Source of the DNA: a virus
Virus record (IMG/VR): IMGVR_UViG_3300037485_001485
Span: 1 to 64,000 of that record
Length of the DNA stretch: 64,000 bases
Strand: one strand, 5' to 3'
The notes under the pieces were generated by a model, which made no database searches, had not been told where the DNA came from, and saw nothing but the letters and a program-made list of their open reading frames with translations. The position numbers were made by a program, and so were the translations under genes. Below are positions 12,245-63,840 of this stretch, piece by piece. Position 1 is the stretch's first letter; each line of letters begins with the position of its first letter.

Positions 12245-12670
12245 CTAACGTGCGGCGCGAAAGACCTGTTCCAGCAGTTCGCGGACGCTGGGCACGAACC
12301 GCATGTGCGGGAGATCGTCCTGGCTGATCCACGCATACCCGTCGCTCTCCCACGTCACGACGGGCTCGCCCTTCCACTTCGTCGCGACGAAGGCGTCCAG
12401 CACAAACCCTTCGGGGTCGTTCCACGTCGTGAGGTAGCGGAGGTCGGTCGGCGAAAGGCTGATCTCCTCCTCGCACTCGCGGCGAGCCGCGTCCTCTGCC
12501 GTCTCCCCCGCGTCGATCCCCCCGCCGGGGAGGTTCCAGTAGTTCGGCTTCCACGGGGCCGTGATGCCGCGCTTCAGGACGAGCGCCTGGAGGCGCGGTA
12601 CGCCCTTCACGGCGCGCTCTTGGACGAGGATGGTGGCAGCGGTGTCGCTGCCGTTGCGGCGCACTTTCAT
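12245..12670 (-). CDS. NUDIX hydrolase
   Basis: Nudix box GGGIDAGETAEDAARRECEEEISL. Confidence 0.9.
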   Translation of the reverse strand: MKVRRNGSDTAATILVQERAVKGVPRLQALVLKRGITAPWKPNYWNLPGGGIDAGETAEDAARRECEEEISLSPTDLRYLTTWNDPEGFVLDAFVATKWKGEPVVTWESDGYAWISQDDLPHMRFVPSVRELLEQVFRAAR

Positions 12671-12679
12671 GGGGATCTC

Positions 12680-15600
12680 CTAAACGGGGCGGCCGACGAG
12701 CGCGAGCACGCCGTCGCCGACGGCGCGAGCGCGGATGCTGCCGGGGTAGAAGCCCGCCGAGCCGTAGACCTCGACGCGCCAGTTCGCGCCGGCCGCCGTG
12801 ACTTGCACGCCTTCCATCCCCCGCTGCACAAGCCAGTTCCGCACGGCGCCCGGCCCCCACTTCGCGCGGGGGAAGAGGAAGGCGTGGACCTCGCGCATCG
12901 TGAGCCGCGTCGCCGGGGCGGGGTTGCGGTGGACCGCGATGCCCGCCGCCGGACCCACGGGCTTCGCCCCGGTGGGGTAGGCGGGCCGCGCCCGAATCCA
13001 CGCCCACAACTGCGGTTCCGCGAGGCGGGCGAGGTCGTGGACAAGGATCACTTCGGCTTTCAGGGGCTTTTCGTCCACCGTGACGAAGACGACGGCGCCT
13101 TCGCTCTGAAAGGTAGCGAGCGCACCCCCGCTGATCGTAGAGCCGGGAAGCAGGACGAAGCGCGGGTCGCGCGTGTTTGCCCGCAGGCAGAACGTGTGCT
13201 GGGTGCCATAGCCCCACAGGGGAGCCGACCACTCCGACGCCGTGAACTTGGAGAACGTCGGGTCGTGGTAGTCCACGCAGAACCCCTCGACGTTCGCCCA
13301 CGGCTGCGCGGCCCAATTGGGGTACGGCATCTTTCCGTTCCAGCCGTTGCCGCCCTCGATGCGCTGCTTCGTGTTCCAGCCGCGCACGGTATCCGTGTCA
13401 GAGTAGGAGCCGAGCGAGGTCAACTGGCCCGCGTAGGACGACGGGGGCGTGAGGTCGCTCGACGCCTGCCACGGCTGGCCTACGTCGGCGCGGAACCATC
13501 CGCTGCCCGACTTCTGCTTGTTCAGCCACGCCTTCATCGCCCCCCAAGGGGAGATGGCCCCGCTCCCGATGGTGCCCGCCGCCTGCATGGTTTCGATCTG
13601 CGAAAGCCCATCGGCGTTGACCCGAAGGGACTGCGACGGATCGTTCGTCTGAAGCTCCGTGAAGGAAAGGCCGCGCACGACGCTCCGCTCGCCGGGGTCG
13701 ATGTAGTTCTTCCAGAGGCCCGCCGCGCGAGCCGCGACGAGGTAGCGGAGCCACTGCGCGAGGCTCCCCGAGGTTTCGGGGCGAGGTGTGCCCCCGGAGC
13801 CGTACATGCTGCTCAGTTTGATGTCCATCTGGGAGCCGACCTGGGTTCCGGCGCTGGGCTTCGTTCCACTCCCGAGCGCCGCCTTCAGGGCTTCCGACAC
13901 CGCCTTGATGATGCCGACTTCTTCGTTTGTGCCCGGTGCAAAGGAGCCATCCGCCGGGTTGCGCTTCCGGGGGAGGCAGTCGTGAAGGGGCAAGCCCGCC
14001 GCTTCCAGCAGTTCCGCGTCCTGAAGGTCACGGAACGACGGGCGCGGGTTGCGGAGCACGTCGCGAACGACGGCGCGGTAGCGTTCCGGGTTCGACCGGA
14101 ACCCGCCGAGGATCGCCGGGTTCTTCTTCAGGAGGGGCGACATAGCCGTCGCAGGGATGGGCGGAACGATCTTGCTTCCCATGTAGGGAATGCCCGTCTG
14201 CGCGAGCATCGCCTGCAACGCCTTCGTCGTGAACAGGGCGGCGACGAGCGGGTCGATGCCGAGGGCTTCGGCGAGCATTTCGACCTGTGCCGATGCCGTC
14301 TGTGCCTTGACCTCCGCGTTGTCGATGCGCTTGCCTTCGATCCACTCCTTGTAGGTGCCGCCGTCCTCGACCTTGCCCTTGCCCAAAAAGAGCAGGTGGA
14401 CCGCCAAAAGCGTACCCTTGGAACTCATGCCCTTGGCGTCGAGCACGAGCTTCTCCGGCGTGCGCGGAGTCGAGCCGATGACACCCGTTCCGGGCTGGAT
14501 CTTCTCGTAGGATCCGCTCGCCAGCCGCACGGCGTAGACCGAGCCGCCCGAAAAGTCGGTGCGGGTCAGGGTGCCGATGGGCAGTTCCGAGTAGACCGCC
14601 AGCGTCGGCGCGACCTGCACGGCAGGCCAGCCGAGGGACTTCGGCGCCGGGAACACGATGCCCTGCTGGGCCGCCGCTTGCGGGTCGGACACGGGCTTGA
14701 AGTAGGTGTCCCAGCTTGGATAGGCGTAGTAGCGGACAACGCCGCCGACGATGTGCGAGCCGTTGGGCAGCGCCGCGATCTGCGCGTTCGTGGTCAGTTC
14801 CGCGCCCGTGACGATGGGGACGCCGCCCACCACGGTCGGGTCGGGCAGACCGGGGGGCGGCTGGACGTTTACCTTCCCGCCGCTCTCATGCGCGTAGACG
14901 AGGAAGTAGACCATCGCCTGTGCAATAGTGCTCGCCACCATGCCCGCCGCGTCCGGAACCGCGATGGTGACGATCTTTTCGCTCTGGAAGATGGAGTCGG
15001 CGAAGAAGCCGAGCGTGACGGTGTTCTTGCCCGCTTCCATGATCCGAACCGAGGCGTCGTAGTTCGGCTCCAGCATCATCGAAGCGAAGCCCGCCCCCAC
15101 GTCGGTGACCACGCCCTTCACCTTTGACGCCGCTTCCTTGATCAGCGGGGCGAGGAGGGCGAGGTTGTCCCCAACCGAGACGATCTGCTTGCTCTTCGGG
15201 CCGGCGGTGACCGGCGCCGTGACCTCCGCTGCCGCTGCCGCTGCCGCCGTCTTCGGGGCCTTCGGCGCCTTCGGCGCCTTCCCCACCGTCGAGGGGTCGG
15301 AGTAGCCTTCGCCCCACGCCGTCGCGACGCTCTGGCCCAAGGAAGTCACTTCATACGCTTTCTTGCCCGTCGCGGAAGCGCCCGCGTAGGTGAACAGGCC
15401 GAGGTCGGCGAGCTTCGACAAGTAGGCGCCGCGCTGCGGGATCGTGCCCTGGTAGTCGAACGCGCTGCTGGACCCCGAAGAAGCGGCGTACATCTGTTGC
15501 TTTGCCGCTTTCTCCGCGACGTGGCCGAACAGGGCTTTTGTCATAAGGAGCTTCACGGCGTCGCCCTTGATGTAGGCGTGGAGCGCCTGCAAGGCCGCGA

Positions 15601-16819
15601 CGACGCCGGGGCTCATCCCGCCTACGGAGGCGGCGGGCGCCGGGGCGGCGGGCGCCGCAGCCGTCGGGGTGGACGTGGCGCCGACGAGCGACGCCAGCGG
15701 GGGCACCGCGAAAACCGCGATGGGCACCTTCAAGTTGGTTTTGTACCAGTCGAAGCCCCCCGGAAGCTCCACGACGGCGGCGGCCATCTGCGCGAACTCC
15801 GCGAACTCCGACTCGACCTTCTGGTTGGACGAATAGGATCCGTATTCGGGATGCAACTCCGACCAATCGCCCACGGAGTAGTGATACCAGACGGTCTTCT
15901 CGCCGTTCGGAGAGAACACGACGAGGACGGTGCCGCTGTCCATGCCAACGGGAAGCGTCTTCCACGCCGTTTTCTTCGGCAGCACCTTGCCCCACGGCCC
16001 CGAAGAGGCGGCGGGCACCGGGACAGCGGCGGGAGGGCCTACCGGCGCGAGATTCACGACGGGGCCGATGTAGCTGGACCCCAGCGACTCGGCCTTTCCC
16101 GCGTAGAACACGGCCTTGGCCGACGCGCACATCGCCGCGAACTCTTTTTCGGTGAGGTACGTTTCCTTGTAGGCTCCGGGCTGGGTGTCGGCCGGACCTC
16201 CGACCTTGGACCAATCCCCGGATGCGTAGTGGAACCACGCGGTCAGGTCTTCGGCCGGGTCGGTCGAGTAGACGACGAGGATGGCCCCACCGCCCTTCTG
16301 CACCCGCGTCGGGAGCGCCTGGATCTGCGCTTCGGTCATCGGGGGCAACCACGCCGGGGGCGCGGGCACCGGGGAACCGGGCGCCGCAGCGGCGGCGATC
16401 ATCGACGCAAAGGCCACCGCGTCCCACCCCGAGACGCCGAGGTTCTGCACCGTGCCGCCCCCGGCGAGCGCCGCGTCCACGAAGCTCTGCATCTTTTCTT
16501 CGGTGAATGCGGCGCTGGCGTATTCACCGCTCTCCAGATTGATCTGCGACCAATCACCGAACTTGTAATGGAACCACGCGATCTTTGTCCCGTCGGACGT
16601 CGTGACGAGGAGTAGCACGCCCTTCTTGTTGGGATCCCCCGGCAGACCCGCGTCCGGCAGGCTCGTCACGTCCAGCGCAACGAGTGCGGCGGCGGGCGCC
16701 GAGGCGGCGAGCCCAACGAGGGCGAGCAGGCCCTTCGACGTGAGCAACGCCAGGAGGGCGTCCGCGACGCCGCTATCGTAGGGGTTGCGGCGAGTGGGGC
16801 GTAGCTGAGAGGCGCGCAT
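12680..16819 (-). CDS. 1379-aa multidomain protein (3x WxHY-GDWS repeats, possible ADP-ribosyltransferase-like domain)
   Basis: Long ORF with Ala/Pro linkers, internal repeats, and VVRGLS...FT..EW.A...EVILV pattern. Confidence 0.75.
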   Translation of the reverse strand: MRASQLRPTRRNPYDSGVADALLALLTSKGLLALVGLAASAPAAALVALDVTSLPDAGLPGDPNKKGVLLLVTTSDGTKIAWFHYKFGDWSQINLESGEYASAAFTEEKMQSFVDAALAGGGTVQNLGVSGWDAVAFASMIAAAAAPGSPVPAPPAWLPPMTEAQIQALPTRVQKGGGAILVVYSTDPAEDLTAWFHYASGDWSKVGGPADTQPGAYKETYLTEKEFAAMCASAKAVFYAGKAESLGSSYIGPVVNLAPVGPPAAVPVPAASSGPWGKVLPKKTAWKTLPVGMDSGTVLVVFSPNGEKTVWYHYSVGDWSELHPEYGSYSSNQKVESEFAEFAQMAAAVVELPGGFDWYKTNLKVPIAVFAVPPLASLVGATSTPTAAAPAAPAPAASVGGMSPGVVAALQALHAYIKGDAVKLLMTKALFGHVAEKAAKQQMYAASSGSSSAFDYQGTIPQRGAYLSKLADLGLFTYAGASATGKKAYEVTSLGQSVATAWGEGYSDPSTVGKAPKAPKAPKTAAAAAAAEVTAPVTAGPKSKQIVSVGDNLALLAPLIKEAASKVKGVVTDVGAGFASMMLEPNYDASVRIMEAGKNTVTLGFFADSIFQSEKIVTIAVPDAAGMVASTIAQAMVYFLVYAHESGGKVNVQPPPGLPDPTVVGGVPIVTGAELTTNAQIAALPNGSHIVGGVVRYYAYPSWDTYFKPVSDPQAAAQQGIVFPAPKSLGWPAVQVAPTLAVYSELPIGTLTRTDFSGGSVYAVRLASGSYEKIQPGTGVIGSTPRTPEKLVLDAKGMSSKGTLLAVHLLFLGKGKVEDGGTYKEWIEGKRIDNAEVKAQTASAQVEMLAEALGIDPLVAALFTTKALQAMLAQTGIPYMGSKIVPPIPATAMSPLLKKNPAILGGFRSNPERYRAVVRDVLRNPRPSFRDLQDAELLEAAGLPLHDCLPRKRNPADGSFAPGTNEEVGIIKAVSEALKAALGSGTKPSAGTQVGSQMDIKLSSMYGSGGTPRPETSGSLAQWLRYLVAARAAGLWKNYIDPGERSVVRGLSFTELQTNDPSQSLRVNADGLSQIETMQAAGTIGSGAISPWGAMKAWLNKQKSGSGWFRADVGQPWQASSDLTPPSSYAGQLTSLGSYSDTDTVRGWNTKQRIEGGNGWNGKMPYPNWAAQPWANVEGFCVDYHDPTFSKFTASEWSAPLWGYGTQHTFCLRANTRDPRFVLLPGSTISGGALATFQSEGAVVFVTVDEKPLKAEVILVHDLARLAEPQLWAWIRARPAYPTGAKPVGPAAGIAVHRNPAPATRLTMREVHAFLFPRAKWGPGAVRNWLVQRGMEGVQVTAAGANWRVEVYGSAGFYPGSIRARAVGDGVLALVGRPV

Positions 16820-21671: not shown

Positions 21672-21947
21672 TTAGCGGCGGCTGCGGCGGGAGCGGCGGC
21701 GGCGGTTCATCTTCATCTTGCGGCTGCGACGGCGGGGGTTCTTCTTCGCGGCGCCGAGGCCCGCGAGGCTGAGCACCTTCTTGCCCGGCTTGGTGTAGGC
21801 GAGAAGCGCGAGCGCGCCGAGGCCGAGCGCCCACACGGGTACGCCCATCACGTCTTTCTTCAGATAGTCCATGATGCCGTCGAGTTCGCCCATGTCGTCG
21901 CCCTCGTAGTCGCCGAGGTCGTAGCTTGCCCCATAGTACCCGTACAT
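21672..21947 (-). CDS. Small membrane protein with Arg-rich tail
   Basis: YG/LG/MG acidic N-terminus, TM segment, KKNPRRRSRK tail. Confidence 0.7.
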   Translation of the reverse strand: MYGYYGASYDLGDYEGDDMGELDGIMDYLKKDVMGVPVWALGLGALALLAYTKPGKKVLSLAGLGAAKKNPRRRSRKMKMNRRRRSRRSRR

Positions 21948-21974: not shown

Positions 21975-22916
21975 TCACGCCCCGTGAGAGTCAATCCACT
22001 TTTTCGCCGCCACGAAGCCGTTCGGCCCGCTGAACGCGGGGCCGTGCGGCATGACGGTGTAGGTTCCAGCCGCGATGCGGATGGTCGTGCCCCCGTAGGC
22101 GACCGACCCGGCGGGGTTGACCCGCACGGACGGCTTCCACGTCGTCGGCTGAAGATGAACACGAAGCTGATCGTAGGCGCGGCGCTTGATCGCGTCGGCG
22201 CCCTTGGCGCGGCTCCCGCCCTTCCCACCGTCGGCCACGGGCACGTCGGTGACGAAGGTGCCGTCCTTCGACACGACGCGCGCAAAGCGGCGCCCCGTGC
22301 GGACGTTGTAGTACGAGTCAATCTTGACGGTCTTCTTGAAGTGCCCGAAGTCCAACGAGCCGATGTCGATGGGCGTCGGGTTCTTCCGAAGTTCGGCGGC
22401 GGTGGCGATGGCGAAGCCGCGCGAGACGGCCTCCCGTTTCGCGACGCCCTGCGAGCGCATCCGCCTCGTCACGGCTTCCGCGACGGCGTCCCGGTGCTTC
22501 GTCCCGCGCCCGATGGACGGGTTGCGCCGCCCTCCGTGGGCCGCGAAAGCCTGCATGAAGGCATCGTGCGCCTTGTCCGCGTTCTCGGTTCGCATCACGA
22601 CACCCTGAGAGTGGTCGGTCAGCGTCCAAATGGTTCCGCCGGGGTGAAAAGCCCAGTCCAGTCGGATCTGAGTGCCGTCCTTGGCGGTGCCCTGCTCGTA
22701 GCCCACCGCTCCGTTGCGGCGAGGTCCGCGCCCGATGGACGGGTTGCGGCGCGGCTTGCGGTTCGCCACCGGGGTCGCCGGGGCGAGGAGGGCTTCGATC
22801 CCCGACGCCGCGCCCTGCATCTTCGCGGCGTGCGCGACGGCCTCCGACTCCGAGGCGTAGGTGACTTCACCGACCTTGGAGCCGTTGCGGCGTAGGATGA
22901 CGCGGGTGCGCGGCAT
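21975..22916 (-). CDS. Basic modular protein with repeated RRNP/RRNG motifs
   Basis: RRNG, RRNPSIGRG x2, RKNP, RVNP separating short modules. Confidence 0.7.
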   Translation of the reverse strand: MPRTRVILRRNGSKVGEVTYASESEAVAHAAKMQGAASGIEALLAPATPVANRKPRRNPSIGRGPRRNGAVGYEQGTAKDGTQIRLDWAFHPGGTIWTLTDHSQGVVMRTENADKAHDAFMQAFAAHGGRRNPSIGRGTKHRDAVAEAVTRRMRSQGVAKREAVSRGFAIATAAELRKNPTPIDIGSLDFGHFKKTVKIDSYYNVRTGRRFARVVSKDGTFVTDVPVADGGKGGSRAKGADAIKRRAYDQLRVHLQPTTWKPSVRVNPAGSVAYGGTTIRIAAGTYTVMPHGPAFSGPNGFVAAKKWIDSHGA

Positions 22917-23719: not shown

Positions 23720-24277
23720 TCAGCGGGTCGTGCGGCGGCGGGTGCGGGGCTTGGCGGGGTTGTACTTCTTCACGAAGGTCTTCTTGCGCTGGGCTTCGCC
23801 GCCCTGCTCGATGACCTGGGCCGTGAGCACGCCCTTGTCGGTCGCCTGCGCGGAGTAGACCGAGGGGTGGAAGTAGACCTTGATCTTGCCGTCGGAACGC
23901 AGAAGGGGCTCGTCCACGCCGATCTCTTCGATCTTGTAGTCGGGGCCGACGTGCATCCGGAGGACGTTCTTCGCATCCGCCGAGGCGGCGCGGATGGTCG
24001 CGTAGGGGCCGAAGATCCCGATCTGCTGCTCATCCAGCATGAGCCGGACCTTGTAGATCGTGAGCTTCTTGGGCGCGGCGCCGGTCCAATCGCCAGCGGC
24101 GAAGACCTGCTGGGCCTTCTTGGCCTTGGTCTTCTTGGGCTTCGCCTTGGCCTTTGCGATCTTGTTGGCCGCCGACTTCGCAGCCTGGGTAGCCTTCGCG
24201 GCCTTGCTCTTCTCGGCCTTCAGTTGCGCCTTCAGCTTCTCGATAGCCGTGGCTGCTGCCTTGGTGAACTTCGCCAT
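23720..24277 (-). CDS. Lys/Ala-rich basic protein (putative DNA-binding core protein)
   Basis: Histone-H1-like KA-rich N-terminus; C-terminal NPAKPRTRRRTTR. Confidence 0.65.
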   Translation of the reverse strand: MAKFTKAAATAIEKLKAQLKAEKSKAAKATQAAKSAANKIAKAKAKPKKTKAKKAQQVFAAGDWTGAAPKKLTIYKVRLMLDEQQIGIFGPYATIRAASADAKNVLRMHVGPDYKIEEIGVDEPLLRSDGKIKVYFHPSVYSAQATDKGVLTAQVIEQGGEAQRKKTFVKKYNPAKPRTRRRTTR

Positions 24278-26792: not shown

Positions 26793-28220
26793 TCAGTAGG
26801 CCGAGCCCGCCGACATGAAGCCGAGGTCGCCCATGCCCTCACTGGCGACCTGACCGAAGCCCTGGCCGATGGCGCCGAAGCCCTGGCCGATGCCCGCGAA
26901 GCTCTGCCCGATGGCGCCCATGCCCTGACCGATGGCGCCCATCGAGGAGCTGGTCCCCACGCGGGTGTCAACGGTCGCCATGGCGTTCTTGCGGAGTTCG
27001 GCGATCAGCGCGCAGCGGGCTTCCGGTTCCATGGCCGCAATGCGACCGAAGCGGTCGAAGCCCACGGCCTTGACGAGCCAGCCCCAACGGTGCCCGCGAC
27101 GACCCGCGTGGCGGGACATCGGGGAGGCAGCGCGGCTCGTCACCTTCGGCGGCGGGCCGAAGGTCGCGTGGTAGGCGTGCGCGCCGTGCATGGCGGCCTG
27201 CCCTTCGTAGCTGTCGAGGTCGGGGCCGCTGTAGTAGGCGTCGGCCATCTCGGCGTCGGCGTAGGCGCCGAAGCCCTGACCGATGGCGCCGAAGCCCTGA
27301 CCGATAGCGCCCATGCTCTCGCCGATGCCGCCGAGGGGCACCACGTCGTAGGCCCCGCCGTCACCGTAGTCGTCCATGTCGCCGAGGTCAGAGGACTGAC
27401 CCTTCAGCGCGCGGAACACGTCGAGGACGCCGCCCGCGATCATCGCCGCGATGCCGAGCTTGCGCTTCTGGTCGTCGGAGAGGAACGGGATCGGGAGCTT
27501 CTGGAGCGCGAAGTTGGCGGCGACGCCCGTGAGGGAGTAGCCGACCGGCGCGAGGTAGCTGCGAGCGAACGCCTGTACCGGCGCGGGAAGCATCCCGCCG
27601 ACGTAGCGGATGGCCTTCACGCCGTAGTAGTGCGTCGCGCCAGCGGCAGCGCCGAAAGCGATGTAGCCGAGTGCCTTCGCAACAGGATGGCCGAGGAAGG
27701 GCACCTTGCTGAGGAGATTCTGCACCGGGCGCAGGATGGGGAGGCTGAAGCCCCCGCCCTCGCTGGGGTTGCGCTTCACGCCGTGGCGACGGCGGTTCAA
27801 CTGGTAGCCCGCGTTCTTGCGGTGGCGACGATTGAGCATGTAGCCCGCGTTCTTGCGACGGCGGCTGCGGTTCTTCTTCGCGAAGAACGACACGGCCTTG
27901 CCATGCGCGCGGAACGACTTCATCGGGTTGAGCGAACGGCGCCGACGGCGGTTCAGCATGTAGCCGGCGTTCCGCTTCATCTTGAACCGCTTCAGGAGGC
28001 GCGCGAGCACGCCCGTCTTCCCGGCACGGCGCCGGTTGTGCCGCATCTTCATGCCCCCGGAAGACCGCCGGCTCTTGCGGCGGTTCTTGAAGAGCCCCCC
28101 GAACAGACGGAAGGCCGTGCGCCCGCGCCGTGCCTTGCGGGCGGTGCGACGACGGCGGGGATTCTTGACGAACAGTGCGCCGCTCAACGGGGCGGGATTG
28201 CTTCGCAGTACGAGGGCCAC
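26793..28220 (-). CDS. Arg-rich core/membrane protein with NP/NAG motifs and GAIGQG repeats
   Basis: Protamine-like N-terminal third, hydrophobic middle, 7-aa GAIGQGF repeats. Confidence 0.75.
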   Translation of the reverse strand: MALVLRSNPAPLSGALFVKNPRRRRTARKARRGRTAFRLFGGLFKNRRKSRRSSGGMKMRHNRRRAGKTGVLARLLKRFKMKRNAGYMLNRRRRRSLNPMKSFRAHGKAVSFFAKKNRSRRRKNAGYMLNRRHRKNAGYQLNRRRHGVKRNPSEGGGFSLPILRPVQNLLSKVPFLGHPVAKALGYIAFGAAAGATHYYGVKAIRYVGGMLPAPVQAFARSYLAPVGYSLTGVAANFALQKLPIPFLSDDQKRKLGIAAMIAGGVLDVFRALKGQSSDLGDMDDYGDGGAYDVVPLGGIGESMGAIGQGFGAIGQGFGAYADAEMADAYYSGPDLDSYEGQAAMHGAHAYHATFGPPPKVTSRAASPMSRHAGRRGHRWGWLVKAVGFDRFGRIAAMEPEARCALIAELRKNAMATVDTRVGTSSSMGAIGQGMGAIGQSFAGIGQGFGAIGQGFGQVASEGMGDLGFMSAGSAY

Positions 28221-29153: not shown

Positions 29154-29941
29154 CAACGGCTCCGAAGGCGACGACGGCGGCGCGGGTTGCGGGCGACGGT
29201 CCCGATGCGGGCGACGGCCTTGTCGGCGGCGCGGCGAGACGCCGCCGCAGCGGCATCGCGGACGCCGAGGATCGGGGCGAGCACCGGACCCAGGACGAAC
29301 CATGCCGCGACGCCCGCGACGCCGAGGCCGGCTACAAGCCATGCGTTGCGCTGGATCCACCAGAGCCAGTCAGGCGTACCCGGCGGCTTCTTGTTCGTGA
29401 TGACGCGCCCGACCTTCTCCAGCCCCTTGCCTACATCCGCCGCCGACGCCGCCGCCGTGTCCACGAGGATGCGGAGGCTCGACTGCTCATCGGCGCGGCC
29501 CTGTGCGCGCTCGATGGCGTCGGCGCGGCTGTTCAGCCCGAAGTTCCGATAGAGCGGCGCCATGCGCCGGTCTTTGTAGGCGTTCGCCGCGTCCAGGGCG
29601 CGCACACCCTCGTCAATGACGGAGGCGATGCCCGAGGCGCTTCCGCTGCTCGCCCACTTGTAGCGGCCCGCCGCGCGCGTGTAGAACGCACGCGCTGCCG
29701 TCGCCAACGCCGGGTAGCCGACGCGCGCACCGACCGCGAGCCAGTAGGCGACGTAGGCTTCGGCGCTCGCCGCGTCCGTGGGCGCCGTGTAGAACCAGTT
29801 CGACGTCACAAGGCCGCCGCCCACCGCCGAGGACAGCACACGGCCCGCCGTCGCCGCGCTGATCTGCTTGCGTACCTCTGCAAGCACCTTGTCCCAGGAG
29901 AGCGTGTCTACGGGTCCGTGGTAGGCCGCGAGGGCGTGCAT
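29153..29941 (-). CDS. Membrane protein with C-terminal RNPRRRRR
   Basis: TM segment AWLVAGLGVAGVAAWFVLGP. Confidence 0.7.
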   Translation of the reverse strand: MHALAAYHGPVDTLSWDKVLAEVRKQISAATAGRVLSSAVGGGLVTSNWFYTAPTDAASAEAYVAYWLAVGARVGYPALATAARAFYTRAAGRYKWASSGSASGIASVIDEGVRALDAANAYKDRRMAPLYRNFGLNSRADAIERAQGRADEQSSLRILVDTAAASAADVGKGLEKVGRVITNKKPPGTPDWLWWIQRNAWLVAGLGVAGVAAWFVLGPVLAPILGVRDAAAAASRRAADKAVARIGTVARNPRRRRRLRSR

Positions 29942-32949: not shown

Positions 32950-33912
32950 CTATCGACGGCTGCGACGGGAGCGACGGTTCGCCTTCGCCTTGCGGTTGCG
33001 GCGGGGGTTCTTCTTCTTCGCCCCGCCCTTCAGCGAGCGGAGGAGCTTCGGGCCGTAGAGCACGGCGCCGAGGAGCGCGAGGCCCATGACCCACGGCTTC
33101 GCGGCATACGCCTTGACGGTGTCCACGATGCCGTCGAAGCCCTCTTCCATCTCCTCCATCTCTTCTTCGTCCGCGACGTTGCCGGGAGCGAAGGTGAAGG
33201 AGCCCGCCTGGGGACCGAGGCCCGGCAGGAGCGGCATGTTGTTGCCGATGGGGTCGAGGCCGCGCACGCGCGGATCGGGGTCGATGGAGCGCGTGAAGAT
33301 GCGGGGGTCGATGTCGCGGGTGAGGATGCGGGGGTCGAGGCTGCGCGTCGGCCCCGGAAGCTCGCCGGGCATCGGGGAGTAGGCCGGGGGCGAGAACTGC
33401 GGCAGCGAGGGCTGGGCCGGGGGCGCGGGCCGGGGGCCGGCACGGCGCACGCCACGGAAGAACCCACGGGGGACCATGCGGAGGAGGCTCGGGGGGAGGA
33501 TGCGGCGCTTGGCCTCTTCCTCAGCGGCGTCGGCATCGACACCCACTCCGGTCAACTGCTGGATCATCGCCTGGATAGCGGCGGTCTGGGCAGCGGTGAG
33601 GGCGCCGGACGCGGCGGGGGCAGCGGGTGCCTTGGTCTTGGCCTTCTTCGCCGCATCGCGCTTGGCCTTGGCCTCGTCGCGCTTGGCCTTACGGTACTTG
33701 GACTCCAGCGAGCGGAGTTCGGTGACCGCCTTCGTCACGTTCAGCTCGGCCTGCTTGCGCCCGTAGGTGAAGAGCTTCTCCTTCCAGACCTTGTTGCGGA
33801 GGCCAACGATCTTCTTCTTCAGCGACTCGATCTTGGCCTTGTAATCGTCAGACGCGGCGCCGAAGGCGCCGAAGGCACCGAAGTCGCCGTAAAAACCGTA
33901 TGCGCCGAACAT
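32950..33912 (-). CDS. Membrane protein with FG/YG N-terminus and KKNPRRNR tail
   Basis: MFGAYGFYGDFGAFGAFGA; R.(I/L)DP repeats; TM segment; Arg tail like 21672-21947. Confidence 0.7.
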   Translation of the reverse strand: MFGAYGFYGDFGAFGAFGAASDDYKAKIESLKKKIVGLRNKVWKEKLFTYGRKQAELNVTKAVTELRSLESKYRKAKRDEAKAKRDAAKKAKTKAPAAPAASGALTAAQTAAIQAMIQQLTGVGVDADAAEEEAKRRILPPSLLRMVPRGFFRGVRRAGPRPAPPAQPSLPQFSPPAYSPMPGELPGPTRSLDPRILTRDIDPRIFTRSIDPDPRVRGLDPIGNNMPLLPGLGPQAGSFTFAPGNVADEEEMEEMEEGFDGIVDTVKAYAAKPWVMGLALLGAVLYGPKLLRSLKGGAKKKNPRRNRKAKANRRSRRSRR

Positions 33913-38568: not shown

Positions 38569-40596
<2,028 letters not shown>

Positions 40597-56849: not shown

Positions 56850-57404
56850 ATGCCCACCGCTCGCCGCCGCAACCCCGCAAAGCGCCTCACCCCCGCCGGT
56901 TTCCGGACCTACTTCGCCTACGACCCCGAAGAAGGCCCGAAAAGCGCAGCGCGTACTGCGGCTGAGCGCGCCGTGAGTCACTGGTGGGCTGCGCGGGATG
57001 CCTCGGCCCTCGGGCGAGGAGAATACCTGTTTCGGGGCATCGACGCCGAGAACGCCATCCTGGCCGGCGGGTCGGCGCCGTGGGTCAAGCAGATGGGGAA
57101 TATCCTGAGCGACATTCGCGAGGCCCGAAAGGGCGTTGTCCGCGAGGCTCACGATGAACTTTCGTGGACCGTGGGGAAGGTAGAAAAGCTGTTCGCGCAG
57201 CCGAAGCAGGTGTTTGAGTCCGCGAAGAGCGAGATTGGGAGCGTCTTGGACAACTACCTTGCGTTGGCTCCGTTCGGGGCCAAGGAGAGCGATCCGACCG
57301 TGGCGCGCTCCGCGCAGCTACTCACGATGCTTGAAGCCGCCCTCGCTTCGGCTGCGAAGTCGAACCCCCGTCGCCGTCGCGCCCTCGCTCGCCGTCGTCG
57401 CTAA
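56850..57404 (+). CDS. Hypothetical protein with NP motifs at both ends
   Basis: MPTARRRNP...KSNPRRRR; RBS GGAG. Confidence 0.7.
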   Translation: MPTARRRNPAKRLTPAGFRTYFAYDPEEGPKSAARTAAERAVSHWWAARDASALGRGEYLFRGIDAENAILAGGSAPWVKQMGNILSDIREARKGVVREAHDELSWTVGKVEKLFAQPKQVFESAKSEIGSVLDNYLALAPFGAKESDPTVARSAQLLTMLEAALASAAKSNPRRRRALARRRR

Positions 57405-57426
57405 CCGCTCACCCATCGGAGCCCTC

Positions 57427-57984
57427 ATGCCCCCGAAGAAGTTTTGGTACGTCGGCGCGATGCCCGCCGCGAACGGTCGCGTCCACCCCGACGTCTTTCA
57501 GTCGGTCCAGCACCTCGCCGAAGGGAAGCCCTACGGGGGCTACGTCGCGGTCTTCGGGCCGTACTCCTCCAAGGCCGAAGCCAACGTCGCCGCCGCCGCT
57601 TCGGCCGCGAAGTCGAACCCCCGCCGCCGCCGCAACCCCATTGATCTGGGCGGGATCAACTTGGATAGCGATACCTACGTTGACGACTTCTCGGGAGAGG
57701 AAGTCGAGACGGTGGACGCGCTTTTTGACCGCATTCAGGACGCCCTCCGGGCTGTTCGCGGCTTGAAGATCGTTTCGGGCAGCGGCTCCCTCTCCGACGC
57801 ATACAATGAGGTGGATGTCACTTTCGAGGTACGCTATTCGGGTGCGCTTGCCTTCGACGCTCTGGAAGCCGCCATCGTTGCCGCGTTGGCCTTGCCGAAG
57901 GGGGACACGGTTGCTGTCGAGGAAGATCCGCTGGGCGACGGGTTCGTAGTCACTCTCCGTCTGAGCAAGCGCACCTACCGCTAA
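57427..57984 (+). CDS. Two-module protein joined by KSNPRRRRNP
   Basis: Same GGAGCCCTCATGCCC start context as 56850. Confidence 0.7.
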   Translation: MPPKKFWYVGAMPAANGRVHPDVFQSVQHLAEGKPYGGYVAVFGPYSSKAEANVAAAASAAKSNPRRRRNPIDLGGINLDSDTYVDDFSGEEVETVDALFDRIQDALRAVRGLKIVSGSGSLSDAYNEVDVTFEVRYSGALAFDALEAAIVAALALPKGDTVAVEEDPLGDGFVVTLRLSKRTYR

Positions 57985-58673
57985 CGGCGGCGACGGCGTC
58001 GAGGGTTCGCCTTCGGCGTGACGACGGCCAGCGTCCTCTTCCCGCCGCCGAGCGCGAACAGGAGGACGGCGCCGACGCCCACCGTGGCGAGGGCGGCGAT
58101 CCACCAGTTCCGCCGGAGCGTCGCAGCCCCGCGCTTCGCCGCTCGCTTGCCCGCCGACACGGCGCGACCTCCGACGGCGACGACTTCGCCCGCCGCCGCG
58201 CGAGCGATGTCGGCGAGTTCGACGGTGAGCAACGGTTCGGGGTCAACGGGCGACGACCCCTTCGCGTAGGGCTTCCCTTTCCAGATTTCAAGGTGAAGGT
58301 GCGGTCCCGTCGTGCGACCAGCGCCGGGGATGCCGACGCCGCCACCCGAAACGCCGACCTTCCCGCCGACGGGGAGCACCGTGCCGGGGGTCACGTCGAT
58401 CCGCGAGAGGTGCAGGTAGCGCGACCAGTAGCCGGTGCCGTGATCGACCTCGACGTAGTGCCCGGCGACCGGATGGTCGCGGACGACGGTGCCTACCTGC
58501 CCGGCGGCGATGAGCGTGACCGGCGTACCCACTTCCGTCGGCATGTCGAGGCCGCCGTGGTTCTGCGCCTTGCCGGTCACGGGGTTCGTTCTCGGCCCGA
58601 ACCGCGACGAGAGGTAGCGGGCGCGGAGCGCGCCGTGGATCATCGTCATCGGGGGCAGGGGCCAAGCGAACAT
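57981..58673 (-). CDS. M23 peptidoglycan endopeptidase with C-terminal TM
   Basis: HGGLD, YLHLS, TTGPHLHLE; TM segment; KANPRRRRR. Confidence 0.9.
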   Translation of the reverse strand: MFAWPLPPMTMIHGALRARYLSSRFGPRTNPVTGKAQNHGGLDMPTEVGTPVTLIAAGQVGTVVRDHPVAGHYVEVDHGTGYWSRYLHLSRIDVTPGTVLPVGGKVGVSGGGVGIPGAGRTTGPHLHLEIWKGKPYAKGSSPVDPEPLLTVELADIARAAAGEVVAVGGRAVSAGKRAAKRGAATLRRNWWIAALATVGVGAVLLFALGGGKRTLAVVTPKANPRRRRRR

Positions 58674-59425
58674 TAGCGACTCCGTCGGGGATTCGACTTC
58701 GGGGGAGAGTAGACGACGAACCCTGCCGAGGGGAAGGTCTGCGCGAGGCGTGCCCACACGGCGAGCGCGTCGTTGCTGGTGATCGGGGTGCCGGTGCCGT
58801 AGAACTCCGGGGCCAGCGCAAACCCATCCTTCGCGATCCGGTCAATCATGGCGTAGTAGAGGGCCGATCCCAGCCCCTTGCCCTTCATCTTCGGAAGGAC
58901 GGCGGCGTTGCCGATGACCATCGCCCCCTTCAACGAAGGGTAGTACGCCATCATCGCCTCTAAGTTGGCCGCGCCCGTAGCATCGCGCATCCGGTAGCCC
59001 CCGTCTACCCAGCCCCCCGCGCCGACGCGACCGAGCAGCGCGGACTTCTCCCCAACGTGCCCCGGCTTGTAGGCTGCGGCATCGTAGGAGACAAAGTAGC
59101 GAGGCACGACTGCGGTTTTGCTTCCGGGGACGGGCTCCCACATCCGCGACTGATTCCGATTGACGACAATCTCCGTGTCCACCTTCGGGGTGACGCGCAA
59201 AAGCGTCGGGTGAGGGTGGACCTTCGGCCCCACGTCAAGGTCGTCCAGTTCGTCCACGATGGCCGTAGCGATAGCCTGTGCGACGGGGCCAAAGCCCTCC
59301 CTTTTCGACCCCTGCAACGCCGCGTTCAGCGTCAGGACGCTGGACTGCGAACCCTTCGCGCGCACGACGGCACGCGCGGCCTGCGTGACGGCCGAGATCA
59401 CTTCGTTGCGGGTCATGGTGGCCAT
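58673..59425 (-). CDS. GNAT-like acetyltransferase
   Basis: AVLPKMKGKGLGSALY acetyl-CoA motif, SNDALAVWARL; ends KSNPRRSR. Confidence 0.65.
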   Translation of the reverse strand: MATMTRNEVISAVTQAARAVVRAKGSQSSVLTLNAALQGSKREGFGPVAQAIATAIVDELDDLDVGPKVHPHPTLLRVTPKVDTEIVVNRNQSRMWEPVPGSKTAVVPRYFVSYDAAAYKPGHVGEKSALLGRVGAGGWVDGGYRMRDATGAANLEAMMAYYPSLKGAMVIGNAAVLPKMKGKGLGSALYYAMIDRIAKDGFALAPEFYGTGTPITSNDALAVWARLAQTFPSAGFVVYSPPKSNPRRSR

Positions 59426-60072
59426 CAGCGACTCCGACGAGAGCGACGGTAGCGGGGATTCGACTTCGGGGGAGCGGGGAGCGTCGGGACGCGCTTCGTC
59501 GCGAGCAACGGAAGCAGGACGACGCCGAGGGCGACGGCGACGACGCCGCCGACGATCAGCCACCAGTTCTTCGACTTCTGCTTCACGACGGGGCGCTTCG
59601 TCTTCGGCGCTTCCGGCGGCGCCGGGGTCAGAGACGAGATCGACGGGCCGCCGGGGAGGGTAGAGATGGGGTTGACGACGACGCGCCCGCGCTCGTACAT
59701 CGCCAGCACTCGGACGATCAGATCGCCCGTGCCCCACGACGACGCAAGGATCGTAGCCGCGACTTCACGCGGAGGCGTGTCGGCCTGGAGGAGCGCCACG
59801 ATGGGCGCGTAGCGCGACATCGTCAGCGTTTGCACCGTCGCGTCCACGCCGTCCTGCGGGGTCAGGTAGTTCTGGACCCCAGCGGTGTTCTTCCCGTAAA
59901 GGGTACTGCCCGGCTTCTTCCACGTCGTGTTGAACGGGTTGTAGGTCGCCTTCCCGCCCTCCGTCTGCCGCCATGCGTAGATGAGGGCGAGCGTGTTCCC
60001 GGTGACGGGCGCCCGAACGCCGCGAAGCACGGCTTCGTAGAACGGGGTGTCGGGCAAGCGGGGCAGTTCCAC
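59425..60072 (-). CDS. Lysozyme-like muramidase with C-terminal TM
   Basis: W.QTEGG..YNPFNTT...VQNY....G..AT..TL...RY; TM segment; KSNPRYRRSRR. Confidence 0.6.
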   Translation of the reverse strand: MELPRLPDTPFYEAVLRGVRAPVTGNTLALIYAWRQTEGGKATYNPFNTTWKKPGSTLYGKNTAGVQNYLTPQDGVDATVQTLTMSRYAPIVALLQADTPPREVAATILASSWGTGDLIVRVLAMYERGRVVVNPISTLPGGPSISSLTPAPPEAPKTKRPVVKQKSKNWWLIVGGVVAVALGVVLLPLLATKRVPTLPAPPKSNPRYRRSRRSR

Positions 60073-60079
60073 GGGATCC

Positions 60080-60298: not shown

Positions 60299-60307
60299 CG
60301 TAGATCC

Positions 60308-61633: not shown

Positions 61634-61639
61634 GGGCTC

Positions 61640-62326
61640 CTACGCGAAGCGGTGGCGGGGGTTCGACTTCGCGGCATGTTTCAGCTTCAGCCAGAGCCCA
61701 TAGCCGGCGTCGAGGACGGCAAGGTCACGCTCGCGGCCTCGCTTGTTCGTGCTCAGGCTCAGCAGTTCCTTCGCCTCGTCGTAGGTGACGAAGGCGATCT
61801 GCGCCGTCTCGTTGTCGAGTACGCCCGTGTTCTCGATGACGCGCATGAGGAAGTAGCGGTTGAGCGCCGACGTAGACTTCCACTCGCCGGGGATGCGCTC
61901 TACGATCTCCGCGCGAACGCCCGTCTCCTCTTCGACTTCGCGCAGCGCGCCTTGCTCCAACGTCTCGCCTTTGTCCACGCCGCCCTTCGGGAGCGACCAG
62001 ACGTAGCCGTCGAAGTGGTTGAGGGGTTCGCGGACAAGGATCAACCCGTCGTCGTTGATGACGACGCCGCCAGCGGCGATGCGCGGCGGCGGGGCGACGT
62101 AGGGCAGCTTTCCGGGGGGCGGGCTGAACGAGGACGCCGAGGGCTTCGCCCCTTCGGGGCGATAGCGCACGCCGCCGATCTCGACGCGCTGAACGACGAC
62201 GTCGGCGTCTTCGCTCAGACGGATCTTGATCGTGCGGGCGTCGGACTGCGCCGCCTGCTGCGACGAGTACGGCCCCATCTCGCCGTGAGACTTCCCGTTC
62301 TTCCGGATGACGATCTTGTAGGCCAC
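61640..62326 (-). CDS. NUDIX hydrolase with N-terminal RKNG module
   Basis: KGGVDKGETLEQGALREVEEETGV; GTG start after GGAG; ends KSNPRHRFA. Confidence 0.9.
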   Translation of the reverse strand: MAYKIVIRKNGKSHGEMGPYSSQQAAQSDARTIKIRLSEDADVVVQRVEIGGVRYRPEGAKPSASSFSPPPGKLPYVAPPPRIAAGGVVINDDGLILVREPLNHFDGYVWSLPKGGVDKGETLEQGALREVEEETGVRAEIVERIPGEWKSTSALNRYFLMRVIENTGVLDNETAQIAFVTYDEAKELLSLSTNKRGRERDLAVLDAGYGLWLKLKHAAKSNPRHRFA

Positions 62327-62334
62327 GCCGTCTC

Positions 62335-63840
62335 CTACTTGTCGAAGTTCTTGATGAACCACGGCACGAAGACGCCGGGAGGCACGGTGCGGATGTCGAG
62401 GCTGTAGGACACCGTGTGCCCGTCGCCCGCATCGTGACGCTGGCCCTTGCCGACGGTCGTGTAGTAGACGGCCTGGGGCTTGAACCACGCGCGAGTCCGA
62501 CCGTCGGGCGAGGTCGCGTGAAGTACGAGCAACGTGGGGCTGCTCAGCTTCCAGCCGGCGGCGCCGAACTCATTGAAGATCCGCTTCCGCGCCACGGCGA
62601 ACGTCTCGGTCTTCGCCGCGCCGTTGCGGCGGTTGCGCGTGAACGAGCGCCCATAGAGCCGCTTCACGTCGTCTTCGTACTGCATCACGTCCTTCGCCGG
62701 GGTCGTGGCAATCGCACGGCCGCCTTCGGTTTCGCGGAGGCCGTCCACCACGGCCTGCGCGCCTTTGAGCGTCGGGGCGTTGAAGGCAACGGAGAGGCCC
62801 GATTCGTGGAGCACCGTCCACCGCCCCCCTGCCTTCGGGACGAGCGGGCCGCCCTCATCGAAGGACTTGAACGTGTATTCTTGGACGAGGTAGTAGCCTC
62901 GGTAGGCGTACCCTGGCTGCTCGCGAAACCCGTCGTGCATCTTTCGCTTGACGATGACGCGCTTCGGGGTCGTGGAGTAGAAGGCGATCTGGCCGAACTG
63001 CACGGTGTCGTCCATGCCGACGAGCTTGGCCTTGCCGTTGCGCCGGGGGTTCGCCTTCGCGAGAATGTCAGCGAGGGCGCCGTGACGAGGGCCGCGTCCC
63101 TTCCCGTGGCGAATGTTCGCCGATTGGAAAATCATCCCGCGAGTCACCGGGGACGGCAGACCGGGGGCAGCGCGAATGACGAGCGCACGGCGGCGCACGC
63201 CGTTGTCGCTCATCGTCACTACCGTCCCTTCCGCAAGGCCCGAAGTGGAGAGAAGCCACGTCGAGTGCGTCGCACGCTCCTCAAGGTAGGGCTTCCACGC
63301 ATGGGCCGCCGTCATGCTGCCGGCGTTGCGCCGGGGGTTCGCCTTCGCCTTCGTGAGCACGCCTTCGGAGTCGGCGGTCCAGCCGTAGCCGCCCTCTTCC
63401 TCCGACCATCCGGGGAGGTAGTAGTCCCAGCCATTCTGACCGTACTTCCGCTTGCGGCTGAACGCCGTGCCCTTGGGGAAACGCTGCCCCTCGATGGTGA
63501 TGTCGTGCGTAGCGACGATCTGCTTCGACCCGTTCCGCACGAGGCCGGAGCGGTGGACGAGCGAGCGGGACGCCGCGATGTTCGCCGCCGTCGTGCCGTT
63601 GCGGCGGGGGTTGCGCTGGCTATGCCCCTCGCGCTCCCAGACCGGCGGTTCCTTGGGCTTGCTCTTCGGGTTCGCCTTCACGCCGTCGCAGCCGCAGCCG
63701 GTGCCGTTGCACCGGGCCACCGACACGTCGGCCCCGGCGTCCCGCATCTTCGCGACCATGCCGGCAGCGACGGCTTCCGACGTGTAGTGCGACTCGCCGT
63801 GCGTTGCGCCGTTCTTGCGTACTGTGACCTTGAAGCCCAT
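62335..63840 (-). CDS. Polyprotein-like chain of small modules separated by KANPRRNG-type motifs
   Basis: KANPK, RNPRRNG, RNG, KANPRRNAG, KANPRRNG, RNRRNG. Confidence 0.75.
   Translation of the reverse strand: MGFKVTVRKNGATHGESHYTSEAVAAGMVAKMRDAGADVSVARCNGTGCGCDGVKANPKSKPKEPPVWEREGHSQRNPRRNGTTAANIAASRSLVHRSGLVRNGSKQIVATHDITIEGQRFPKGTAFSRKRKYGQNGWDYYLPGWSEEEGGYGWTADSEGVLTKAKANPRRNAGSMTAAHAWKPYLEERATHSTWLLSTSGLAEGTVVTMSDNGVRRRALVIRAAPGLPSPVTRGMIFQSANIRHGKGRGPRHGALADILAKANPRRNGKAKLVGMDDTVQFGQIAFYSTTPKRVIVKRKMHDGFREQPGYAYRGYYLVQEYTFKSFDEGGPLVPKAGGRWTVLHESGLSVAFNAPTLKGAQAVVDGLRETEGGRAIATTPAKDVMQYEDDVKRLYGRSFTRNRRNGAAKTETFAVARKRIFNEFGAAGWKLSSPTLLVLHATSPDGRTRAWFKPQAVYYTTVGKGQRHDAGDGHTVSYSLDIRTVPPGVFVPWFIKNFDK

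Follow-up and report, generated by a model that had tools for sequence, protein, structure and literature searches.

We analysed the first 64,000 nucleotides (hereafter the window, 64 kb) of IMG/VR virus record IMGVR_UViG_3300037485_001485, the genome of an uncultured bacterial virus of 72,988 bp with 127-bp direct terminal repeats. The analysis concerns a short peptide tag, rich in arginine (Arg) and lysine (Lys) and bounded by asparagine (Asn), that recurs at the ends and module joints of otherwise unrelated proteins. The guanine-cytosine (GC) content of the genome is 67-70% throughout, Arg and proline (Pro) make up 7% and 6.5% of the residues in the window's 78 proteins, and the six frames of the window are packed with open reading frames (ORFs), 382 of them with at least 60 amino acids (aa). 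Because high GC opens ORFs in all six frames, genes were called with a codon-usage model and dynamic programming, which yielded 78 genes for the window and, for the complete genome, 95. The N-terminal tags rest on start-codon calls made here, which gene calls in databases independently support for the NUDIX enzyme.

Clear tags were present on 17 of the 95 proteins (genes 12245, 12680, 21672, 21975, 23720, 26793, 29153, 32950, 38569, 44453, 56850, 57427, 57981, 58673, 59425, 61640 and 62335, named by their first coordinate), and weak ones on three more (29941, 31196 and 43395). The original prediction had described a genome-wide tag on about 20 proteins; 'genome-wide' was an overstatement, since all clear carriers lie within three blocks (12245-40596, 40692-46261 and 56850-63840). 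Each instance that it had listed, at N-termini, C-termini or junctions, was recovered at its gene end. The carriers comprise two NUDIX enzymes, an M23 peptidase, a protein with a weak GNAT match, membrane-anchored proteins and modular proteins; as had been claimed, the motif is common to unrelated proteins, and it is portable. The earlier labels NUDIX, M23 and membrane protein were supported, GNAT is marginal (22.3 bits against a Pfam cut-off of 22.1), and 'zincin' (an HELRH seen only by eye) and 'lysozyme-like' found no support in Pfam.

Within the three blocks, which hold particle and effector genes, 17 of the 48 genes carry the tag, against none of the 47 genes elsewhere (Fisher p = 2.7e-6, for blocks drawn post hoc). 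Pfam matches related to replication and recombination included PolA with an exonuclease, an SMC/AAA_23-like ATPase, a tyrosine integrase, two SNF2 helicases, DUF3987 and, weakly, DUF932, and the last 9 kb of the genome encode AAA_24, a PD-(D/E)XK nuclease and a UDG-like protein. The tag is absent from PolA, the SMC-like ATPase, the integrase, DUF3987 and DUF932, as had been reported, and also from both SNF2 helicases. In or beside the particle block, Pfam identified the two NUDIX enzymes, the M23 peptidase, the marginal GNAT and a transglutaminase-like core; the minus-strand block 12245-40596 was otherwise almost without Pfam or PHROGs matches.

The tag unit is a basic run fenced by Asn, with NP at its start and N[PG] (N[AST] in the 475-aa core protein described below) at its end. 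Of the unit proposed originally, (K/R)xN(P/G)-RRR, the basic and Asn elements were confirmed and the unit as such was not. Three layouts occur. The C-terminal arm runs from the domain through [K/R]-[S/A/K]-N-P to a terminal Arg(n); the N-terminal arm runs from Met through x(1-10) and R-R-N-[P/G/S] into the domain; and the internal joint is N-P-R-R-(R-R)-N-[G/P/A]. Among 22 distinct C-terminal tags, the arm extends 3-24 residues past NP (median 10), NP is invariant, a small residue occupies position -1, and K/R occupies position -2 in 14. A membrane helix, by a hydropathy threshold, precedes four of the genome's ten C-terminal tags (21672, 29153, 57981 and 59425), a shorter hydrophobic stretch seen by eye precedes a fifth (32950), and the proteins that bear the remaining five have no such helix. 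The C-terminus of 23720, KKYNPAKPRTRRR, is a looser variant. Only one N-type tag, that of the 1379-aa protein, is followed by a hydrophobic stretch; it begins after ...PTRRNP, ends in ASAPAAA and resembles a signal peptide or N-terminal anchor. All features are listed in Table 1.

Table 1. Tags and associated features in the window (positions are those of the window)
Feature	Gene or protein	Position	Strand	Remarks
N-type tag MKVRRNG	NUDIX enzyme (gene 12245-12670)	12650..12670	minus	
Internal KKNP and KRNP seams	1379-aa protein	13955..14128	minus	
N-type tag MRASQLRPTRRNP (...PTRRNP)	1379-aa protein (gene 12680-16819)	16781..16819	minus	hydrophobic stretch follows
C-type tag KKNPRRRSRKMKMNRRRRSRRSRR (KKNPRRRSR...)	91-aa protein (gene 21672-21947)	21675..21746	minus	after membrane helix
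N-terminal ...ILRRNG, then RRNP, RRNG, RRNP, RKNP seams	modular 313-aa protein (gene 21975-22916)	22377..22916	minus	
Looser C-terminal variant KKYNPAKPRTRRRTTR	gene 23720-24277	23723..23770	minus	
Head of conserved core protein	475-aa protein (gene 26793-28220)	27765..28220	minus	VALVLRSNP, APLSGALFV, KNPRRRR, then 133-aa basic region ending KRNP
C-type tag ARNPRRRRRLRSR (ARNPRRRRR...)	gene 29153-29941	29156..29194	minus	after membrane helix
C-type tag KKNPRRNRKAKANRRSRRSRR (KKNPRRNR...)	gene 32950-33912	32953..33015	minus	
Transglutaminase-like Cys-His enzyme		35356..36159	minus	Pfam PF01841, E 3.7e-8; C-terminal membrane anchor, no tag
N-type MARRNS	675-aa protein (gene 38569-40596)	40579..40596	minus	
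Weak junction RRTNP	gene 43395			
N-type tag MPIVRRRNG	602-aa protein (gene 44453-46261)	44453..44479	plus	HELRH seen by eye
C-type tag KSNPRRPRRAPRRRTR (KSNPRRPRR...)	602-aa protein	46211..46258	plus	
N-type tag MPTARRRNP	184-aa protein	56850..56876	plus	
C-type tag KSNPRRRRALARRRR (KSNPRRRR...)	184-aa protein	57357..57401	plus	
Internal joint NPRRRRNP (KSNPRRRRNP)	185-aa protein (gene 57427-57984)	57616..57639	plus	between two parts of the protein
Membrane helix and tag ...KANPRRRRRR	M23 peptidase (gene 57981-58673)	57984..58121	minus	Pfam M23 E 2.8e-17
C-type tag KSNPRRSR	weak GNAT-like protein (gene 58673-59425)	58676..58699	minus	
C-type tag KSNPRYRRSRRSR (KSNPRYRR...)	gene 59425-60072	59428..59466	minus	after membrane helix
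C-type tag KSNPRHRFA	second NUDIX enzyme (gene 61640-62326)	61643..61669	minus	
Joints NPRRNG, NPRRNA, NPRRNG, RRNG	beads-on-a-string 501-aa protein (gene 62335-63840)	62620..63840	minus	
CCGAT(G/A)GCCCTCC copies		28300-28312, 33981-33993, 35350-35362, 63874-63886	minus	

The counts were compared with 2000 rounds of within-protein shuffling. Over the window's 78 called proteins, K[SAK]NPR occurred 11 times against 0.02 in the shuffles, NPRR 12 times against 0.13, and RRN[PG] 12 times against 0.37. Over the 95 proteins of the genome, [RK][RK]N was found within the first 16 residues of 8 proteins (0.35 shuffled), and NP with basic residues within the last 26 residues of 9 proteins (0.12 shuffled). 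In none of these five cases did any of the 2000 rounds reach the observed count. When every protein was rotated by half its length, the terminal counts fell to 1 (N) and 0 (C), and therefore the signal belongs to the true termini.

With 67-70% GC and its many Arg and Pro residues, the genome might be thought to produce such a motif by itself, either through Arg/Pro-rich translation at 68% GC or as a translated DNA repeat. This artefact is ruled out by the shuffles, the frame control, codon variation and low-GC relatives, and we consider its probability negligible. In the coding frame NP[RK][RK] occurred 14 times, and in the other five frames 0, 1, 0, 0 and 0 times; four of those five hold 2-5 times more basic dipeptides, and the fifth holds about as many (443 vs 387). 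Codons differ among instances, with CGC, CGT, CGA or AGA for Arg and TCG or AGC for serine (Ser), and relatives of 32-39% GC write the tag with Lys. Hence, the tag acts at the protein level and is not GC-driven.

Asn is obligatory at the fence. An unbiased look at the flanks of runs of at least two Arg/Lys ranked NP as the top dipeptide before them (14), with NP (11, tied with SR) and NG (9, tied with AK) the commonest after them. The first residue of xP[RK][RK] was Asn in 14, Ser in 0, threonine (Thr) in 2 and aspartate (Asp) in 2 of 35 occurrences, and the third residue of [RK][RK]x[PG] was Asn in 20, Ser in 0, Thr in 3 and Asp in 3. Ser, Thr and Asp are thus nearly absent from this position, although in the proteome each outnumbers Asn by a factor of two or more.

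Such strictness invites the idea of a specific address peptide, read by a receptor on a protein of the assembling particle (capsid, scaffold or vertex) and not through charge alone, in the manner of the T4 capsid-targeting sequence and of encapsulin cargo peptides. The preferences at -2 (14 of 22) and -1, the invariant NP, the strict need for Asn and the portability across unrelated proteins point to specificity beyond charge and would suit this explanation. Against it, length and sequence past NP vary widely (3-24 residues), N-type and C-type tags are mirror images and not one peptide, and the motif also punctuates the long protamine-like region of the 475-aa protein, where a docking peptide would be needless. 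We regard an address peptide as quite unlikely.

The internal joints are best seen in two modular proteins, 21975-22916 and 62335-63840, none of whose modules matches Pfam. RRNPSIGRG occurs twice in the former, with near-identical DNA (22518-22544 and 22740-22766), and two joints of the latter are identical over 25 nt (63324-63348 and 63036-63060); both repeats point to recombination or duplication at joints. The N-terminal R(R/K)NG of 21975, 61640 and 62335 belongs to one common small domain with 9 invariant columns, so these three are not independent and count once. A suspected likeness of this domain to YegP/DUF1508 had no Pfam support. In the orthologs of the 501-aa protein at two related loci (L117 and L123), the opening module (about 60 aa) and the closing one (about 100 aa) are kept, the middle ones vary in number and kind, and every joint reads NPRR, NPRRN, RRNG, RRNS or RRNP.

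These joints also fit a purely structural punctuation, in which Asn-Pro and Asn-Gly are turn or cap signals that isolate flexible basic linkers and have spread by module recombination, with no role in sorting or maturation. The repeated stretches, the swapping of modules at joints among relatives, and the three R(R/K)NG in one small folded domain, where NG resembles a hairpin turn, all speak for it. However, Ser, Thr and Asp can usually fill turn or cap positions as well, and they are nearly absent at the fence. The tag is also conserved across 32-71% GC and down to about 50% protein identity, is written with differing codons, is found among NUDIX enzymes on the viral copies only, and is confined to the particle and effector blocks. 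Punctuation alone is, in our judgement, quite unlikely.

To follow the tag in relatives, a conserved 232-aa protein (26025-26723) was used as a probe (alignment A1, 28 homologs). It has more than 569 metagenome homologs, nearly all unnamed, with 54-99% identity among the 120 listed. Neighbourhoods were taken from three collections: 4 loci from viral contigs, the best 80 of 170 confirmed stretches from metagenome contigs, and 4 loci from a genome collection. The tag was kept in relatives of 32-71% GC, down to about 50% protein identity (core protein 36/36, close NUDIX 8/8). Four longer viral contigs (G001-G004) encode proteins with these tags at their N- and C-termini, and their orthologs of the present carriers mostly keep the tags, with drift to RRNS, FRTNRRRRRR and one RKHG. 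For example, the tag of 29153 is retained in G001 and in locus L010, the G001 ortholog of the 32950 protein ends in KSNPRRRRSRRNRRNRR, and that of the 185-aa protein has RRRNP at the same joint.

The NUDIX enzyme 12245 provides a direct comparison. All 8 close orthologs (58-96% identity) start with M-x(1-6)-RRN[GS], against none of 14 full-length distant homologs (one fragment was left out), and among NUDIX enzymes the tag thus appears from these sequences to be an addition confined to the viral copies. Each of the two homologs of the GNAT-like protein ends in PK[PS]NPRRR(R). The counterparts of the second NUDIX enzyme (61640) end in KANPRRHTFA in L117 and KRNRRRHSFA in L123, and the 59425 orthologs at these loci end in PPK[SA]NPRRRR(R). 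At least one instance was found in 23 of the 28 loci of 10 kb or more; this census is a lower bound, because the self-trained gene caller undercounts short loci, where it missed known tags (L007, L117 and L123).

A DNA scan of the viral contig collection for K-x-N-P-R-R-R-R, restricted to CGN arginine codons, returned at least 119 stretches. The 80 loci listed were mostly out-of-frame noise; in ten, no fewer than 60 codons upstream were open and a stop followed within 25 codons, and inspection by eye left four real C-terminal tags on long ORFs (L117, L119, L123 and L158). All four come from the present virus group: L119 and L158 lie in G001 and G004, and L117 and L123 are syntenic with 59425-68950 of the genome.

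The last 55 residues of the M23 protein (170-224), which contain the helix and KANPRRRRRR, share 62% identity with the end of an L117 protein of another kind; elsewhere that protein has no similarity to M23, and it has no Pfam match (a GFSGG was seen by eye only). This transfer and the swapped modules imply that the arm, with or without the helix, moves between proteins. A search with the 46-aa helix-plus-tag module against 1.84 billion representative proteins found no true relative at that depth. Its single match (E 1.6e-5) was rejected: a WD40-repeat protein that aligned through hydrophobic repeats and contained neither NP[RK][RK] nor [RK][RK]N[PG].

The same idiom is clearest in the 475-aa core protein (gene 26793-28220), the most basic protein of the genome, which is conserved in 74 loci beside jelly-roll-like proteins. 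Its 133-aa basic region contains 52 Arg and Lys, 12 Asn and no acidic residues in the window copy. We recovered 36 distinct N-termini of this protein, from 32 to 71% GC, with a pattern that did not require Asn. All 36 have a hydrophobic nonamer (consensus APLSGALFV) between an N[PG] (NP 22, NG 14) on its N-terminal side and an x-N-P on the other, after which most continue with basic residues; N8, N20 and P21 are invariant in their alignment (A3). Across 56 distinct domains from orthologs, 36% of 957 basic runs are followed by Asn, which makes up 9% of the non-basic residues.

The core protein belongs to a conserved seven-gene core (125, 197, 180, 232, 475, 65 and 208 aa; 24356-29156) that recurs in 22-87 related loci. 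No scaffold, prohead protease, portal, tail or terminase was detected with Pfam, PHROGs and profile searches; profile searches of the whole genome for packaging proteins covered two families, Terminase_6N and FtsK_SpoIIIE, and gave no match. Walker A sites number only two in the genome; one is in the SMC-like protein and the other in the AAA_24 protein, both of them proteins of replication or recombination. The structural block is rich in proteins with a single membrane helix. The 180-aa and 232-aa proteins are the most conserved of the beta-rich proteins. An AlphaFold model of the 180-aa protein (pLDDT 77.5) best matched the HHIV-2 small capsid protein 6h82_b (Z 8.1, rmsd 3.3 Å, 113 residues aligned) and the SPV1 capsid protein 6oj0_T (Z 7.8). 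The model of the 232-aa protein (pLDDT 63.6) matched 6oj0_T with Z 6.7, behind a tailed-phage cement protein that ranked first (Z 7.0). Foldseek E-values for the two models were no better than 0.0016. The two proteins are thus borderline jelly-roll-like, and the models suggest a tailless, membrane-containing particle with a jelly-roll capsid. Hence, the genome looks like a member of an undescribed group of large tailless phages. Protein Data Bank sequence searches with the 675-aa, 602-aa and transglutaminase-like proteins and an ESM Atlas look-up of the 675-aa protein gave nothing usable, and megablast of 24 kb against a phage collection gave no match.

The sequence CCGAT(G/A)GCCCTCC (CCGATRGCCCTCC) occurs exactly four times, three times as CCGATGGCCCTCC and once as CCGATAGCCCTCC. 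All copies lie 34-81 nt upstream of minus-strand genes in the carrier blocks (26793, 32950, 34862 and 62335), and when up to two mismatches are allowed the number rises to 15, where 7.1 would be expected. The sequence may be a late promoter or operator, and it is a partly independent marker of the carrier blocks.

Several other proteins share terminal sequences. Aromatic-Gly heads on the minus strand are found on the 91-aa protein (MYGYYG, 21947), a 320-aa protein (MFGAYGFYGDFGAFGAFG, 33912) and the conserved 232-aa protein (MYGVPGF, 26723); the first two also carry the C-terminal Asn-Pro arginine tag. Two adjacent paralogs of about 325 aa (7155-9107, minus) start with MALP(A/T)LNW(R/K)YVG, and the head (T/A)RPPFSGY is common to a 120-aa and a 441-aa protein (9565-9927 and 60308-61633, minus), the latter with a weak match to a PHROG 'tail protein' (E 6e-4). 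These four proteins are possibly spikes or fibres with a common docking head. Four neighbouring small genes (50740-52760, minus; 162, 94, 152 and 181 aa) share the tail ...(A/I)IE(R/N)G(E/G)HRR(E/A)E.. and form a paralogous early-gene family.

In our tentative best explanation, to which we give somewhat less than an even chance, the arm is a tether to the DNA core or to the membrane that loads proteins into a probably tailless, membrane-containing particle. The portable element is an Asn-fenced polybasic arm of 2 to about 20 Arg/Lys. Asn-Pro opens it where a C-terminal arm meets its own protein, and Asn-(Pro/Gly, sometimes Ala/Ser/Thr) closes an N-terminal or internal arm before the next folded part. 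The arm would bind electrostatically to packaged DNA or to a nucleoprotein core built by the 475-aa protamine-like protein; the acidic face of an internal membrane is an alternative target. Bound arms would recruit and hold in the particle the small membrane-anchored proteins and the membrane-anchored M23 wall-cutting enzyme. Soluble enzymes (the two NUDIX, the GNAT-like and the HExxH protein) would likewise be held there and accompany the DNA into the host. The steps that we infer are the binding of the arm to DNA or membrane, the presence of the carriers in virions and their delivery to the host.

A tether would explain the charge of the arms, their variable length and terminal position, the idiom of the core protein, the helix context, the restriction to late blocks and the portability. 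Two features count directly in its favour: the arms consist purely of Arg/Lys and lie at the very ends of proteins or between their modules, and tagged C-tails that follow a membrane helix resemble basic tails that face the cytoplasm or DNA. The two wall hydrolases of the genome differ in form: the M23 peptidase has both helix and tag, and an endolysin-like M15 peptidase (E 1.2e-11), located outside the window at 65586-66098 of the genome (minus strand; L109:2586-3098), has neither. The lack of a detected packaging motor and the matches to capsid proteins of the membrane-containing viruses HHIV-2 and SPV1 fit loading by co-condensation with DNA. SPV1 has a nucleoprotein core beneath its lipid layer (PMC8459092), and by analogy a virus with a conserved protamine-like protein and without a packaging motor could assemble similarly.

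Several points weigh against a tether. Pure electrostatics leaves the obligatory Asn unexplained, including the 36 of 36 fences of the core protein. The Z values behind the suggested particle type, about 8 or less, are borderline. If the internal membrane formed as in PRD1, basic cytoplasmic tails would turn to the capsid and not to the DNA. The three blocks were drawn after the carriers had been seen. Moreover, the loci of some relatives have few or no tags (e.g. L023, L048, L060 and L086); the caller undercounts short loci, and some subclades may truly have few tags.

Because a tether leaves the strict Asn need unexplained, Asn-directed cutting remains a serious rival, and it may act on top of tethering. 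Here, basic arms and inter-module linkers would be cut after the invariant Asn, either by self-cleavage through Asn cyclisation at Asn-Pro or by a viral protease (the transglutaminase-fold Cys-His enzyme or the HExxH protein), so that cargo is freed and the core protein is chopped into protamine-like peptides. Such cutting would account for an Asn that Ser, Thr or Asp do not replace, for its constant position right where the basic run meets the remainder of the protein, and for joints that part swappable modules as in a polyprotein. A candidate enzyme is at hand within the conserved module: GDCDD, HIY and AE[PV]T are invariant in 11 transglutaminase-like sequences from 9 contigs of 32-71% GC. 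This protein is probably an active Cys-His enzyme of the particle module and a candidate processing enzyme for cleavage or cross-linking. Self-cleavage at Asn|Pro has precedents in FlhB/YscU, at Asn|Pro-Thr-His, and in reovirus mu-1 (PMC3207474), and for the polyvalent proteins of phages, processing by peptidase domains that they themselves carry has been predicted (PMC5512222). However, no gene fission was seen at tag sites among the orthologs in G001-G004, L117 and L123. NPTH is absent from all 95 proteins, and known Asn lyases need a folded context. Some orthologs drop Pro or Asn while the arm stays (RRNS, FRTNRRRRRR and RKHG), and one L117 piece between joints, of about 27 residues, would be short for a released product. 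We consider Asn-directed maturation rather unlikely.

Tethering and an Asn-keyed step might also be combined in a single load-and-process code. The arms would load about 17 unrelated proteins, among them enzymes, onto the DNA core of a large tailless membrane-containing phage, and Asn would serve as the handle by which they are removed or fixed. Removal might proceed by Asn-Pro self-cleavage; alternatively, removal or fixation might fall to the membrane-anchored transglutaminase-fold Cys-His enzyme, with the Asn side chain as its target for cutting, deamidation or Lys-Asn cross-linking. Bacterial viruses would thereby have their own version of adenovirus core maturation, based on another chemistry and on a tag that is portable. 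We consider this full combination unlikely.

The carriers include enzymes typical of injected effectors, and polybasic arms bind nucleic acids and acidic lipids. Hence, the arms could instead be host-directed signals that, after entry and not during assembly, steer injected enzymes to the nucleoid, RNA or inner membrane of the host. NUDIX and GNAT contexts have been noted for virion-packaged proteins (PMC5512222), in keeping with this proposal. Yet many carriers are small, membrane-anchored and structural-looking, and the DNA-condensing core protein shares the idiom, so we hold a purely host-directed role to be very unlikely.

The tag was compared with known systems. The capsid-targeting sequence (CTS) of phage T4 is an N-terminal peptide of about 10 residues that the T4 head protease removes at L/I-x-E. 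Like the present tag, it is a short terminal peptide that forms the sole feature common to diverse internal proteins and is portable to foreign proteins (PMC3012670). In contrast, the T4 peptide is N-terminal and acts via the scaffolding core of a tailed phage, whereas the tags here are polybasic, Asn-fenced and located at either end or internally; the termini listed share no leader of the L/I-x-E type. Closer in character are the arginine-rich arms of the capsid proteins of small icosahedral viruses and the protamine and adenovirus core proteins, in which terminal, probably disordered Arg-rich stretches neutralise and hold nucleic acid and, in some arms, Asn is common. The present arms share their terminal position, the dominance of Arg/Lys, the lack of acidic residues and the variable length. 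They differ in being portable, with an Asn fence, on at least 17 unrelated proteins, enzymes among them, whereas arginine-rich arms belong to the capsid or core proteins themselves.

The SPK(K/R) repeats of sperm histones likewise combine a turn-former, Pro and two basic residues in DNA-compacting tails (PMC9903204). Their first residue is Ser or Thr, unlike the tag (Asn 14, Ser 0 and Thr 2 of 35). Asparagine peptide lyases (FlhB/YscU, reovirus mu-1) have Asn next to Pro at a functional break, which in viruses serves particle maturation (PMC3207474). They act at a single site in a folded domain, whereas the tag offers many sites in basic, probably flexible segments, and the Asn|Pro-Thr-His of family N6 (FlhB/YscU), which lies in a conserved domain with a four-strand sheet, is missing from the 95 proteins. 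Polyvalent proteins, known from phages and conjugative elements, are strings of unrelated effector modules, with NUDIX and GNAT contexts, that are predicted to be packaged, injected and possibly processed (PMC5512222). That work treats domain content in phages with portal and terminase (PMC5512222), whereas most carriers here are single-domain and end-tagged, in a genome without detectable portal or terminase; the main text of that paper contains neither 'linker' nor 'Asn' (PMC5512222).

In twin-arginine (Tat) signals, a hydrophobic h-region and an AxA-type site come a few residues after RR; four of the five N-type tags inspected run into polar sequence instead. Sortase and exosortase signals consist of a motif, then a membrane helix, then a short basic tail; the order here is helix, a spacer of 10-25 residues, KxNP and basic tail, and half of the tags have no helix. 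In the adenovirus core, to which the original prediction had drawn an analogy, basic DNA-bound precursors are trimmed within the particle at the consensus (M/I/L)XGX-G and give short basic peptides. That maturation is not Asn-based and uses a protease of another clan. Because the comparisons with T4 CTS, Asn lyases, SPKK, Tat and sortase signals fail and the generic properties of an arginine-rich arm are present, the tag appears akin to the polybasic tethers and targeting peptides found at protein termini, here in a virus group not yet described. A full-text literature search, with supplements outside its scope, found no published description of the motif, in agreement with the original prediction.

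If the tag serves in loading, it would provide a rule, readable from sequence, that predicts which proteins lie inside the particles of a widespread, uncultured group of large phages, and a ready peptide for packing foreign proteins into such particles. If its Asn is a site of cutting or cross-linking, it would represent a new maturation chemistry for bacterial viruses and give a function to the transglutaminase-like enzyme. Either way, the NUDIX, GNAT-like, M23 and HExxH proteins are marked as probable virion-borne effectors, and the tag helps to define the particle of a virus group that has no detectable head, portal, tail or terminase genes.

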